UHGV virus genome: UHGV-0186551
Strand: one strand, 5' to 3'
DNA: 38,300 nucleotides
Origin: a virus
This document shows positions 28,120-35,865 of this stretch, piece after piece. Within the stretch, counting starts at the first letter, position 1. Every line of letters begins with the position of its first letter. Under the pieces are notes generated by a model that searched no databases, had not been told where the DNA came from, and saw only the letters and a program-made list of their open reading frames with translations. The position numbers and the translations under genes were made by a program.

Positions 28120-28398
28120 TCAGGCCTCAAAACTGTTGCCGCAGTCTTGAGGCTTTTCTTTTGTCAGCACCATGGCTACTTTCTTTGCCAGCTCCGCTAA
28201 TTCCTCGTCTTCAACACCCCACTCCAGCACAGCCAGAAGCATGGCCATCTTTGGGATAAAGCTGTCTTTCCATCGCGAAATTTGCGATTCATTGATCCCT
28301 AATGCATCAGCAACCTTTCGCTGACCACGTACAGCAATTCGATTTAGGATGTTGCTTGTAATTGCATTCGCTTTCTTGCGAGTACTTGTAAGTTGCAT
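28120..28398 (-). CDS. cII: Lysogeny establishment activator CII
   Basis: SQISRWK...MLLAVLEWGV motif as in lambda CII; start moved to ATG at 28398 (track start 28485). Confidence 0.85.
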   Translation of the reverse strand: MQLTSTRKKANAITSNILNRIAVRGQRKVADALGINESQISRWKDSFIPKMAMLLAVLEWGVEDEELAELAKKVAMVLTKEKPQDCGNSFEA

Positions 28399-28457
28399 AT
28401 GTAAGTATTTACTTAACAAATAAGAAGTTATGCGCATCAACTTATGCGCGTTGTATT

Positions 28458-28500
28458 CCCGCATTTCGGCGGGAATGAGGACCATGACTGTTAAAGAGCG
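28458..28500 (-). promoter_or_regulatory. nutR (boxA cgctctttaa, boxB hairpin cccgccgaaatgcggg)
   Basis: boxA/boxB read on the - strand between cro and cII; boxB identical to the nutL copy. Confidence 0.75.
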
Positions 28501-28506
28501 GTGTTA

Positions 28507-28701
28507 CTATTTGTTTTTCTTGTTGCTTGGGAAAGGACGAACTTCCTCTCCAATCACACTGCCATCAGGCTTTACCGTAACCATGATGTTACGGCCTGCC
28601 AGAATGGCCTTGCTGATAGCGCACTGGATTACACCAAAGTCACTGGCTGCTTTAGCCTGTCCATGGATTTTGGCGTAATCGGCAAGTGTCATTCGAATCA
28701 T
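28507..28701 (-). CDS. cro: Cro repressor
   Basis: TL.DYA...GQ.K.A.D.GV.Q.AI.KA...GR.I......DGSV..EEV.PFPSNKK as in lambda Cro; ATG at 28701 (track start 28707 is GTG). Confidence 0.9.
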
Positions 28702-28730
28702 ATGCACTCTCCGTTATTAACCATGAACAA

Positions 28731-28799
28731 AGAATACTACAGGTATTCAAAGCAATCAATACTCAGGGTATTTTTAGTTTAAGTACCTTAGCTATTAGA
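28731..28799. promoter_or_regulatory. oR/pR/pRM region: operators near gaatactacaggtattc (28732..28748), aatactcagggtatt (28758..28772), degenerate third (28783..28799); pR -10 28731..28736 and -35 28754..28759 on - strand
   Basis: Inverted-repeat operators sharing consensus with oL sites; pR -35 TTGATT, 17-bp spacer, -10 TATTCT; probable leaderless cI transcript. Confidence 0.65.
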
Positions 28800-28807
28800 A
28801 TTAAGCT

Positions 28808-29524
28808 ATGGAAAATAAAAAATCACTGACGACAGAACAGCTCGAAGACGCTAAGCGGCTTAAGGCTTTGTATGAGTCAAAAAAGAAAGAATTGGGAATA
28901 ACCCAATACTCAATCGCTGATGAACTGGGTATCACCCAAGGAGCGGTAGGGCATTATCTTAATGGCAGAAACGCGCTAAACGTTGAGGTTGCATCTGGTT
29001 TTGCACGATTGTTGCAAGTCTCAATTGCTGATTTTAGCCAGTCAATTGCTGCCAAGGTTGCAGAACAGGCAGAAAGCCTTAAGAGCGATGCCAACGTAAG
29101 GTATGCAGGGGAATACAGAGCAGGAAAGAGGTATCCGGTGTTAAGCAGTATCCAGGCTGGCTCGTGGTGTGAAGCATGCGAACCATACACCATTAAAGAC
29201 ATAGATGTTTGGCTTGAGTCTGACGCGCATATTCAAGGTAATGCGTTCTGGCTTAAAGTGGAAGGTGATTCAATGACGGCACCGGTTGGGTTAAGCATTC
29301 CAGAGGGAACATTCGTTCTTTTCGATACCGGAAGGGAGGCGATCAACGGCAGCTTGGTCATAGCAAAACTTTCTGACTCTAACGAAGCAACATTCAAGAA
29401 GCTGATAATCGACGGCGGAAATAAATACCTCAAGGGACTTAATCCTGCATGGCCTCTCGTGCCAATCAATGGAAACTGCAAGATTATAGGCGTTGCAATT
29501 GAGACAAAACTAAGGCTGGTTTGA
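28808..29524 (+). CDS. cI: CI repressor (N-terminal helix-turn-helix, C-terminal S24 LexA-like autocleavage domain)
   Basis: 238 aa; LTTEQLEDAKRLKALYESKKKELG... and AFWL.VEGDSMTAP as in lambda CI. Confidence 0.9.
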   Translation: MENKKSLTTEQLEDAKRLKALYESKKKELGITQYSIADELGITQGAVGHYLNGRNALNVEVASGFARLLQVSIADFSQSIAAKVAEQAESLKSDANVRYAGEYRAGKRYPVLSSIQAGSWCEACEPYTIKDIDVWLESDAHIQGNAFWLKVEGDSMTAPVGLSIPEGTFVLFDTGREAINGSLVIAKLSDSNEATFKKLIIDGGNKYLKGLNPAWPLVPINGNCKIIGVAIETKLRLV

Positions 29525-29541
29525 TCACGCAAGGGGCGATT

Positions 29542-29910
29542 ATGGTTGGAACCGCTATAGCAAGCTTTTTGGGGATGTTGGCAATCTCAACAATTTACGG
29601 CTTAGCGCATGCTTTTATTGCGAAATCTCTATCAGAAAAAATAAGCCAGGCTTGGGCGCATAGATCTGCTCGTTTCATGATTCTAGTGGTCATAGCAATA
29701 CAAGGGATATCTGCATTTATCCTCTATGGATCAAGCTTATACCTGTTGTATCAAGGCGCGACATTTACGCCTTACACCAGTGATTACGGAACTCTATACG
29801 ATGGTAGTGAAGACATCTCTATGGCTTGGATCGTCTTTGGTTTATCTATGGCCGTGTCTGTTGTAGCAGACATCATTAAGGTAATTCTCGTCTTAACCTT
29901 CGCTGACTAA
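29542..29910 (+). CDS. Multi-pass membrane protein co-transcribed with cI (rex-position cargo)
   Basis: ATG at 29542 with AAGGGG ribosome-binding site, 18 nt after cI stop; about four hydrophobic segments; track start 29521. Confidence 0.7.
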   Translation: MVGTAIASFLGMLAISTIYGLAHAFIAKSLSEKISQAWAHRSARFMILVVIAIQGISAFILYGSSLYLLYQGATFTPYTSDYGTLYDGSEDISMAWIVFGLSMAVSVVADIIKVILVLTFAD

Positions 29911-29999
29911 CCCATAATCCCGGCAGCAATAGCTATCGGGATCCACTTCACATATCCCGCATAAAAAGCACTGAACAAGCAGACACCGAAAAAAAATAA

Positions 30000-30085
30000 A
30001 TATCCTTTGTATTCATTTGCTTATCATTATTTCACCAAAAATAAATACCTTGGGTATTTACACAATAAAATACCTACAGTATTCT
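30000..30085 (+). promoter_or_regulatory. oL/pL: operators atatcctttgtattc (30000..30014), aataccttgggtatt (30044..30058), aatacctacagtatt (30069..30083); pL -35 TTTACA 30057..30062, -10 TATTCT 30080..30085
   Basis: Same operator consensus as oR; promoter geometry mirrors pR. Confidence 0.65.
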
Positions 30086-30130
30086 TTAGCCATCAGCAGG
30101 ACGCTGATAGCCAAACGGAACAGATTGGCA

Positions 30131-30171
30131 GGCTCTTTAACATTGATGGGATTGTCCCGCCGAAATGCGGG
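30131..30171 (+). promoter_or_regulatory. nutL (boxA ggctctttaa, boxB cccgccgaaatgcggg)
   Basis: boxA followed after a 16-nt spacer by the same boxB hairpin as nutR, upstream of N. Confidence 0.75.
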
Positions 30172-30279
30172 AACCAAAGAGTAGTTGGCTTTGGGGTGAC
30201 GTGAAGTTCAGCTGCACGACGGCAACCGGAAGATAAGCACCCGGCGCGTCACCGCCAAAGTCAATCATCGGAGGTCAAC

Positions 30280-30552
30280 ATGGCAGTAGTCATTACATTT
30301 CTGGCTGACGATAACGCCAGAAATCGCCGCAGAGCACGCAGACAGGCTCAACGTGAGCAGGCAATGCAAGAACAGCGACTGGCGCGAAAAATTGCGCTAA
30401 AGCTCTCTGGTTGCGTCAGAGCAGACAAAGCAGCATCACTCGGAAGCCTTCGCTTCAAGAAGGCAGATGAATGGAGTGGAAGTATTTGCCTGCCAAACGT
30501 AGCCATTTACGCGGCAGGCTACCGGAAATCAAAACAACTGACGGCGAGGTAA
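30280..30552 (+). CDS. N: Antiterminator N (arginine-rich-motif type)
   Basis: 90 aa; ARNRRRARRQAQREQ motif; first gene after pL/nutL; GGAGG ribosome-binding site. Confidence 0.8.
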   Translation: MAVVITFLADDNARNRRRARRQAQREQAMQEQRLARKIALKLSGCVRADKAASLGSLRFKKADEWSGSICLPNVAIYAAGYRKSKQLTAR

Positions 30553-30554
30553 TT

Positions 30555-30917
30555 ATGGGTCAGGAAGAAAAATATGAGCTTAAAAAGCTAATTGGAGAAG
30601 ACGCCATAGAAGAAATTGCAGCATTAACAACAGCTATAAAGAATATTAGGTATGCGCTAAATACGCTTATCTCCTCATGCGACAAAAATAGCAGGGAATT
30701 TTTGATACTTGGCGCAGCTCTAGGAATAGTTGATGCGGCAACGCTTCACCTAATTACTCATGACGATATTCTTATTGAGCCGTATGAAACATTACTGCTT
30801 GTCAGGCAAAAAATGGCTGATGCCGCAGCAAATGGAGACCTTCAACTTTACATCGACTTAAGGAAAGTATTAAGGCGAATGGTCAGAACTGAAGGAGATA
30901 TCCCCCTGACAAAATAA
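30555..30917 (+). CDS. Hypothetical protein, 120 aa (Ral-position accessory gene)
   Basis: ATG 3 nt after N stop with GAGG ribosome-binding site; track ORF 30471..30917 trimmed. Confidence 0.65.
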   Translation: MGQEEKYELKKLIGEDAIEEIAALTTAIKNIRYALNTLISSCDKNSREFLILGAALGIVDAATLHLITHDDILIEPYETLLLVRQKMADAAANGDLQLYIDLRKVLRRMVRTEGDIPLTK

Positions 30918-31100
30918 GGGGGTGAGAGGATTTTACTATTTTTCTCGCTGTAGGGGTACACGAGAACCACCGAGCCTGATGTGGTTAAAAGACAGGCACA
31001 ATCTTTACTACCGCAAGCCACGCAGTGAAATGGGCGTGACATGCTCAGGCCGCCAGAAGCAACGCGGAAAATCAATTCCAGCTTATTACGATTGAGGTTA

Positions 31101-32000: not shown

Positions 32001-32026
32001 GCCCTCCAGTGTGAGGGCCTTTTTAT
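32001..32026 (+). terminator. Rho-independent terminator in the pL operon
   Basis: gccctc cagtgt gagggc hairpin followed by ctttttat. Confidence 0.6.
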
Positions 32027-32090
32027 ATGCATACCAATAACGCTTCACTCGAGGCGTTTTCGTTATGCAATCAAATATAAGGAGTTACCC

Positions 32091-35557: not shown

Positions 35558-35590
35558 TGGCTAAGGCAGCAGCAGAGCGCAACTAACAAT

Positions 35591-35646
35591 CCTCGCACTC
35601 GCGGGGATTTCTTTTATCTGAACTCGCTACGGCGAGTTTTGTTTTA
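35591..35646 (+). terminator. Tandem hairpins with T-runs upstream of orf55/xis
   Basis: cctcgcactcgcgggg + atttctttt and aactcgctacggcgagtt + ttgtttt. Confidence 0.5.
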
Positions 35647-35658
35647 TGGAGATGATAA

Positions 35659-35826
35659 ATGCACTTCCGAGTCACAGGTGAATGGAATGGAGAACCATTC
35701 AACAGAGTTATCGAAGCAGAGAACATCAACGACTGCTATGACCACTGGATGATATGGGCGCAGATAGCACATGCAGACGTAACCAATATTTGTATTGAAG
35801 AACTGAAAGAACACCAAGCCGCCTGA
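35659..35826 (+). CDS. Lambda orf55-like hypothetical protein
   Basis: 55 aa hand-translated (MHFRVTGEWNGEPF...); lies upstream of xis as in lambda. Confidence 0.55.
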   Translation: MHFRVTGEWNGEPFNRVIEAENINDCYDHWMIWAQIAHADVTNICIEELKEHQAA

Positions 35827-35865
35827 TGGCGGTTTTTTCTTGCGTGTAATTGCGGAGACTTTGCG

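Follow-up and report, generated by a model that had tools for sequence, protein, structure and literature searches.

The closest described relative of the locus considered here is the early region of coliphage HK620 (AF335538.1 / NC_002730), whose genome was published by Clark et al. 2001, J Mol Biol 311:657 (ref. 51 in PMC2629481). The HK620 record contains the features 'nutL; putative N-utilization leftward' and 'nutR; putative N-utilization rightward', and it also annotates pL, pR, OL1-3, OR1-3 and, adjoining nutR, tR1. Its N gene is labelled 'antitermination protein N, similar to bacteriophages H19B and 21 N protein'. Both boxA elements are annotated in the record of mEpX2. The searchable literature, to which the HK620 genome paper did not belong, contained no binding or antitermination experiments on an N-boxB pair of the HK620 type. 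N proteins are described as interacting through three regions, one each for RNA, NusA and polymerase (PMC3526286). For phi21 it was reported that the CUAACC hexaloop of boxB adopts a GNRA-like fold of 4 nt, with a non-canonical C.C pair on its flanks (PMC12550061).

N proteins and nut sites were pulled from the reference records with one script, and the N proteins were aligned. The reference phages have the same layout of boxA, spacer and hairpin, and each type of arginine-rich motif goes with a distinct boxB. The types compared in this study are the following:

lambda: motif QTRRRERRAEKQAQW; boxB GCCCU-GAA(G/A)A-AGGGC
P22: motif AKTRRHERRRKLAIE; boxB GCGCU-GACAA-AGCGC and CCGCC-GACAA-CGCGG
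phi21 (lambda imm21, mEp235): motif AKSRYKARRAELIAE; boxB hexaloop CUAACC
HK97/H-19B type (mEp234): motif RSRRRER (H-19B, quoted in PMC3526286); boxB CGCU-GACAA-AGCG
VT1-Sakai type Stx1 phage (AP005153): motif AASRRRARRANLQ; boxB UGGCU-GAAA-AGCCA and UCGCU-GAAA-AGCGA
The DNA analysed here, and HK620: motif NARNRRRARRQAQRE; boxB CCCGC-CGAAAU-GCGGG at both sites

The DNA analysed here, which we call the window, is a stretch of 38.3 kb from the virus genome UHGV-0186551. A 3-kb region of it is 98% identical to HK620 and to several other phages. Within this region the two nut sites agree with those of HK620 in 100% of the bases of boxA, spacer and boxB, N is 93% identical, and the genes cI, cro and cII belong to the HK620 type. 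The features nutL, nutR, pL, pR, the operators and N of the HK620 record stand at the positions that correspond to those in the window. The window phage is nevertheless a different P22-like mosaic and not HK620 itself; over the first 25 kb it is matched best by other Lederbergvirus phages, with a coverage of 46-63%.

Immunity region and nut sites of the window

The genes are arranged as in a lambdoid immunity region, in the order cII, nutR, cro, OR/pR, cI, a gene similar to hkaS, OL/pL, nutL and N. On the minus strand the order of transcription is cro, nutR, cII, a small ORF, an O-like replication gene and a gene for a DnaB-like helicase, whereas the plus strand carries cI, a gene for a membrane protein of 122 aa, nutL and N. 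Pfam matches in the region are Cro, Peptidase_S24 with HTH, Phage_CII and N_peptide; NCBIfam gave no match for N or its neighbours. The relevant features are:

28120 to 28398, minus strand: cII (Pfam Phage_CII, 1.5e-44; first gene past nutR; HK620 cII has 279 nt)
28455 to 28476, minus strand: nutR boxB hairpin (stem AUUCCCGC/GCGGGAAU, loop CGAAAU; core 28458-28473; equal to HK620 nutR)
28491 to 28499, minus strand: nutR boxA (GCTCTTTAA, in RNA CGCUCUUUAACA; exact match)
28507 to 28701, minus strand: cro (Pfam Cro, 3.6e-26; annotated as cro in HK620; between pR and nutR)
28808 to 29524, plus strand: cI repressor (HTH and S24 peptidase; annotated as cI in HK620; between both nut sites)
30057 to 30085, plus strand: pL-like promoter (TTTACA-17-TATTCT from the promoter scan; overlaps operator palindromes of the AATACCnnnnGGTATT type; corresponds to HK620 pL, OL1-OL2)
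30132 to 30140, plus strand: nutL boxA (GCTCTTTAA, in RNA GGCUCUUUAACA; exact match; inside the nutL annotated in HK620; boxA of mEpX2)
30155 to 30172, plus strand: nutL boxB hairpin (stem UCCCGC/GCGGGA, loop CGAAAU; core 30156-30171; equal to HK620 nutL)
30184 to 30265, plus strand: long-range stem of the N leader (30184-30203 with 30245-30265, 20 bp; fold -71.6 kcal/mol, z -3.1)
30280 to 30552, plus strand: N gene (90 aa; Pfam PF25694 N_peptide, 2.7e-15; PHROG 271, 1.1e-32)

The boxB 16-mer CCCGCCGAAATGCGGG occurs exactly twice in the 38.3-kb window, at 30156-30171 on the plus strand and at 28458-28473 on the minus strand, and a third copy was not found in the window even when up to 2 mismatches were allowed. 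By chance 0.03 matches are expected, and two copies were present in none of 100 shuffles. The identity between the two sites reaches 19 nt (TCCCGCCGAAATGCGGGAA, inverted repeat I2). The 9-mer boxA GCTCTTTAA is likewise restricted to two exact occurrences in the window, and the similarity around them extends over 18 nt at 89% (inverted repeat I3). In the transcribed sense the spacing from boxA to boxB is 15 nt at nutL and 17 nt at nutR. Thus the initial annotation, which was made from the sequence without database searches and had described an identical boxB at both places, in reverse complement at the second, with a boxA-like element ahead of each, proved exact in these points.

Both boxB copies form hairpins when folded, as the initial annotation had presumed. 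The stem of nutL consists of 6 bp (30155-30160 with 30167-30172, -10.5 kcal/mol, z -2.8), that of nutR of 8 bp (28476-28469 with 28462-28455, -12.5 kcal/mol, z -4.1), in each case with the hexaloop CGAAAU. Read as RNA, each along its own divergent operon, the hairpins are identical. The minimum-free-energy fold also paired the nutL boxA with AAAGAGU just past boxB. This pairing was rejected; it is absent at nutR and lost in those loci which have an insert behind boxB.

The position of the two sites is that of nut sites. nutL lies about 45 nt past the pL-like promoter, that is into the transcript, and 108 nt before the start of N, while nutR lies 8 nt past the cro stop and ahead of cII. Each of the two early transcripts, pL-N and cro-cII, contains one boxA and one boxB stem-loop in sense orientation, a layout which agrees with that of lambda, P22, phi21, HK97-type and Stx1 phages. 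The boxA GCTCTTTAAC of both sites is the boxA of P22 and phi21, and judged by its sequence it matches the consensus for binding of NusB/NusE. We take GCTCTTTAAC to be the core of rrn boxA as well. Rfam returned only noise, both for the whole window at gathering thresholds and for 28300-30400 at permissive E-values, and it apparently holds no model for nut. Gene order, Pfam and PHROG matches, the pL-like promoter and the annotation of HK620 all bear out the placement of nutL past pL and of nutR past cro. We therefore regard the two hairpins as nutL and nutR of an HK620-type lambdoid early-antitermination system, with a probability of roughly 0.9.

Stable, G+C-rich hairpins which open both early operons could also be N-independent transcription terminators or elements of RNA stability, and in HK620 tR1 is annotated directly beside nutR. 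Neither of them was called by the terminator scan, however, and the U-tract is absent past both (GCGGGAACCAAAG, GCGGGAAUACAAC). As, in addition, boxA stands at a fixed distance ahead of each hairpin and a single arginine-rich module of N co-occurs with them, such a role appears very improbable. A candidate terminator is the hairpin GCGCAU-AAGUUG-AUGCGC, which is located 5 nt past the nutR boxB, where tR1 is annotated in HK620. Terminator-like sites on the plus strand were found at 32001-32058 and 35588-35835.

The repeat might finally be a DNA palindrome for a dimeric protein, or an inverted duplication which arose by chance or recombination and has no function in RNA. In DNA the stem arms are indeed palindromic, and the two copies belong, as do the operators, to a larger region of mirror symmetry. 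These operators, however, have another motif, AATACC..GGTATT, whose palindromes are found at 28733-28774 and 30000-30083 and form a 45-nt mirror repeat; the operator-like repeats at 30044-30059 and 30068-30083 are mirrored at OR (28733-28774). The asymmetric CGAAAU loop keeps its orientation to transcription at both sites, which would be needless for a DNA palindrome. A chance duplication is opposed by the expectation given above, and chance as well as recombination by the conservation of the pair around at least six size classes of immunity cassettes. We consider this explanation hardly credible and retain the assignment as nut sites.

The N protein, its leader and the known boxB classes

The predicted protein scores 57.1 bits with PF25694, for which the cut-off is 27.9, and so belongs to the N_peptide family, and PHROG 271 is described as 'anti-termination protein N-like'. 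Its gene starts 195 nt past the pL-like promoter. The arginine-rich motif NARNRRRARRQAQRE comprises residues 11-25 (nt 30310-30354); an arginine-rich motif in N had been part of the initial annotation and is present as RNRRRARRQAQR at residues 13-24. The protein as a whole is a mosaic. The arginine-rich N-terminal module is its own, the middle part (residues 37-64) shares 93% identity with phi21 N, and the C-terminal part (residues 65-90) is of the P22/HK97/Stx type, with 85-95% identity to Stx/HK97-type N; both values indicate homology only. On the level of sequence this mosaic fits the organisation of N into three regions (PMC3526286). A relic of another N allele is found downstream of N in the window.

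The long-range stem of the N leader closes 5 nt before the Shine-Dalgarno sequence GGAGG (30270-30274). The same stem architecture is found in the leader of a Phytobacter prophage, with the compensatory changes GGGUGACG/CGUCACC to GGCAAGCG/CGCUUGC, and it matches that of the N leader of lambda. In lambda RNase III acts on the leader stem, and by way of this site N controls its own translation when bound to nutL. Because the lambda-like stem brings nutL beside the ribosome-binding site of N, a comparable control of N translation involving nutL probably exists here too, by analogy to lambda.

The boxB of the window differs from those of the lambda, P22, phi21, HK97/H-19B and VT1-Sakai types. The difference from lambda, which the initial annotation had noted, is confirmed by NC_001416, where boxB reads GCCCUGAA(G/A)AAGGGC. 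Lambda has a GAA(G/A)A pentaloop, the boxA CGCUCUUA and a spacer of 8-9 nt, compared to the hexaloop and the 15-17 nt of the window. Its N is only 18% identical to that of the window and has the motif QTRRRERRAEKQAQW and another C-terminal module. With a loop of 6 nt, another stem and an alanine at the position of N equivalent to Trp18, the window does not belong to the lambda class.

The phi21 system (PDB 1NYB) is more similar in that it also has a hexaloop, the boxA GCUCUUUAAC and a nearly identical middle part of N, LARKIALKLSGCVRADKAASLGSLR.KKA. The loop, however, is CUAACC instead of CGAAAU, the motif is AKSRYKARRAELIAE instead of NARNRRRARRQAQRE, and the C-terminal module differs. Thus the loop length is that of the phi21 class (CUAACC, SRYKARR motif) but neither the loop sequence nor the motif is. 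P22 and the window phage have P22-like virion genes and the C-terminal module of N in common, but P22 differs by the motif AKTRRHERRRKLAIE and by the GACAA pentaloop which characterizes its class. In the P22 nutR (CCGCC-GACAA-CGCGG) the loop is closed by a pyrimidine-pyrimidine C.C mismatch.

Closest in the core elements is the Stx1 phage AP005153, with which the window shares a GAAA loop core, an RRRARR motif core and the C-terminal module CLPNVA.YAAGYRKSKQLTAR. One could therefore argue that the hairpins are nut sites but that N and boxB cross-react with a known class, for example with the U-GAAA-A tetraloop of VT1-Sakai or the GNRA-like pentaloop of lambda. The GAAA and RRRARR cores are common to both, as can be seen from the two boxB sequences of AP005153, UGGCU-GAAA-AGCCA and UCGCU-GAAA-AGCGA, and from its motif AASRRRARRANLQ, which contains SRRRARR. 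AP005153, however, has a true tetraloop, which is closed by a U-A pair and not by C.U as it would be in the window, and the stem sequences (UGGCU/UCGCU) as well as the residues flanking the arginine-rich core differ. The spacer between boxA and boxB, unlike that of the window, contains an additional hairpin. Of the alternatives considered, cross-reaction with a known class is the only one of weight, in particular with that of VT1-Sakai; it appears unlikely to us, also in view of the distribution of the N module described below.

In contrast, the boxB CCCGC-CGAAAU-GCGGG at both sites and the motif DNARNRRRARRQAQRE are identical to those of HK620, so that the comparison with the known specificity groups assigns N and boxB to the HK620 type and separates them from the other classes examined. 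The nut sites as such are already known, as they have been annotated in HK620 since 2001.

Joint distribution of the arginine-rich motif and boxB

We scanned IMG/VR for exact copies of the HK620-type boxB. The motif LA[DS]DNARNRRRA[RK]R is present in all 84 complete N genes which adjoin this boxB, and in the same 84 genes the middle and C-terminal parts are shuffled, with at least four unrelated types. That a single arginine-rich module stands beside the exact boxB in 84/84 cases is a further point against cross-reaction with another class. Another 88 copies of the HK620-type boxB in IMG/VR are followed by cII. Contigs which contain both copies always have them in divergent orientation, at distances of 1152-2990 nt that fall into about six size classes. 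This variation of the distance between nutL and nutR indicates that different immunity cassettes are placed between one pair of nut sites.

A sample unbiased toward boxB was obtained from 80 loci picked by similarity of N. All 158 boxB copies in these loci are invariant, and boxA is invariant in 26 distinct nutL contexts and 25 distinct nutR contexts. Four positions of the nutR spacer are variable, and 5' of the nutR boxA the sequence switches among at least three types of cro. The HK620-type boxB stem offered no compensatory changes, all examined copies being identical, and therefore the hairpin rests on thermodynamics and on the analogy to other phages. The insert of 254 nt behind boxB in some relatives has no excess of structure (z -0.34) and no match in Rfam.

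A search of contigs with the N alignment gave at least two confirmed loci among the matches listed. One of them, the most informative relative, is a prophage of Phytobacter ursingii (L212), in which homology to the HK620 type covers the flanks of nutL with boxA, spacer and leader, and also the N-terminal framework MTVVITILASDN. The loops of its boxB hairpins are CUGACA at nutL and CUAACA at nutR, and the arginine-rich motif reads NSKNRYRARRAAKRE. Loops and motif alike are phi21-like, and the prophage fits the phi21 boxB class. Motif and boxB were thus switched together.

The linkage is not absolute, as three loci have an HK620-type N without intact nut sites. In one of them (L004) an insertion removed nutL and the HK620-type N was kept. 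In the other two (L065 and L071) the HK620-type N is a second N gene behind an N of the lambda type, and the HK620-type boxB is halved; L071, which matches mEp213, has retained a lambda-type nutL. These three arrangements look like scars of insertion or recombination.

Taken together, the pattern of linkage is what one would predict for an arginine-rich motif and a boxB that determine specificity, and it supports the claim of the initial annotation that boxB defines the specificity of N in this phage, as far as a comparison of sequences can do so. By the same comparison a separate specificity class, which consists of the HK620-type boxB and the motif NARNRRRA(R/K)R, is supported.

Early antitermination and recognition of boxB

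The rightward transcript from pL and the leftward transcript from pR both contain the sense boxA GCUCUUUAACA, which is followed 15-17 nt on by the boxB hairpin. By analogy to lambda, P22 and phi21 the arginine-rich motif would fold onto the boxB loop of the nascent RNA, and NusB/NusE of the host would occupy boxA. The phi21-like middle of N may then contact NusA and its P22/HK97-like C-terminus RNA polymerase, as suggested by the corresponding N proteins. The polymerase, to which the complex would be tethered by the RNA, is predicted to resist the terminators behind nutR and in the pL operon. Expression of cII, of the O-like gene and of the helicase gene would need such read-through past nutR.

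Since among the sequences of PDB chains no meaningful match to N was found, its mode of recognition is described by analogy. In the simplest reading, which we put forward as a hypothesis, the boxB loop is a GAAA (GNRA) tetraloop closed by a C.U mismatch. C-GAAA-U would then be a parallel to the C-UAAC-C of phi21 and to the C.C-closed GACAA of the P22 nutR. Whether the HK620-type pair has a structurally distinct and orthogonal mode of recognition, with GAAA on a C.U mismatch and a motif without tryptophan or another aromatic stacking residue, is a question on which we see slightly less than even odds for a yes. If it does, it would be a further independent natural peptide-RNA pair beside those of lambda, P22 and phi21, and together with the Phytobacter variant it would represent a natural change of the class of motif and boxB inside one conserved framework. 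The HK620-type N-boxB pair could also become an extra orthogonal tool for RNA tethering.

The finding itself is correct yet ordinary, as it re-discovers a feature of a reference phage which is common in prophages of E. coli; the module of nutL and the 5' part of N is present in 417-526 of 5,426 complete E. coli genomes (about 8-10%). For the window phage its value is confirmatory in that the anatomy of the early operons is fixed. For the phages of this type it shows that the motif stays with its boxB even as the remaining parts of N and the immunity cassette are exchanged.

Mosaic joints at the nut sites

The related loci compared (L003-L082) share the conserved stretch that runs from the nutR boxA through boxB to cII, and 5' of it at least three cro types alternate. 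The resulting joint lies exactly at the edge of boxA:

28500-28506: mosaic joint at the 5' edge of the nutR boxA, seen across loci L003-L082

The spacing between nutL and nutR varies from 1152 to 2990 nt among viral contigs, and therefore immunity cassettes are exchanged between a fixed pair of nut sites. Two loci, L065 (about 100-533) and L071 (2218-4001; this one matches phage mEp213), carry N genes in tandem, in which the HK620-type N is the second gene, 3' of a lambda-type N. A lambda-type nutL (GCCCTGAAGAAGGGC) is also found upstream in L071. In both loci the HK620-type nutL is devoid of boxA and of the 5' half of boxB, which places a recombination junction inside boxB.

Genes beside the nut sites

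Two reading frames of the immunity region concern its gene content:

28120-28485, minus strand: mechanically called ORF of 121 aa, cII extended upstream
29542-29910, plus strand: predicted membrane protein of 122 aa (HK620 hkaS, PHROG 6534)

The long form of cII spans the nutR boxB and is also annotated in the IME10 record; the HK620 annotation gives a cII of 279 nt (28120-28398 in the window). The extended version is probably an annotation error. The hkaS-like gene is located between cI and pL, the place which is occupied by rexAB in lambda, and may be a moron expressed from the prophage.

The N leader

Between nutL on its 5' side and the Shine-Dalgarno sequence of N on its 3' side, the window contains a predicted structure:

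30184-30265, plus strand: long-range stem of 20 bp in the N leader (predicted fold, z -3.1)

The lambda N leader has a long-range stem of like architecture, which there is the RNase III site, and so has the leader of a Phytobacter prophage, there with compensatory base changes. This architecture suggests a lambda-like autoregulation of N translation. In some relatives, namely mEp213, two Stx2c phages and, partially, a Providencia phage, boxB is separated from the stem by about 254 nt of inserted non-coding sequence (3642-3895 in L071), and AACTGAGTTTAA follows boxB. The insert has no annotation and no match in Rfam, and its predicted structure is not in excess (z -0.34).

Probable replacement within N

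About 450 nt 3' of the intact N gene, and preceded by an hkaQ-like ORF (30555-30917), a remnant of a second allele is found:

30999-31095, plus strand: 3'-terminal relic from another N allele, within the mechanically called ORF 30922-31095

It codes for YYRKPRSEMGVTCSGRQKQRGKSIPAYYD followed by a stop codon, and this peptide is identical (29/29) to the C-terminus of N alleles in IMG/VR. The relic looks like the scar of a module replacement inside N. The prophage of Phytobacter ursingii ATCC 27989 (L212, 4317-4794 and about 3038) shares homologous nutL flanks and the N framework with the HK620 type. Its arginine-rich motif, NSKNRYRARR, is phi21-like, and the loops of its two boxB copies read CUGACA and CUAACA. 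L212 is a natural case of a joint class change of arginine-rich motif and boxB.
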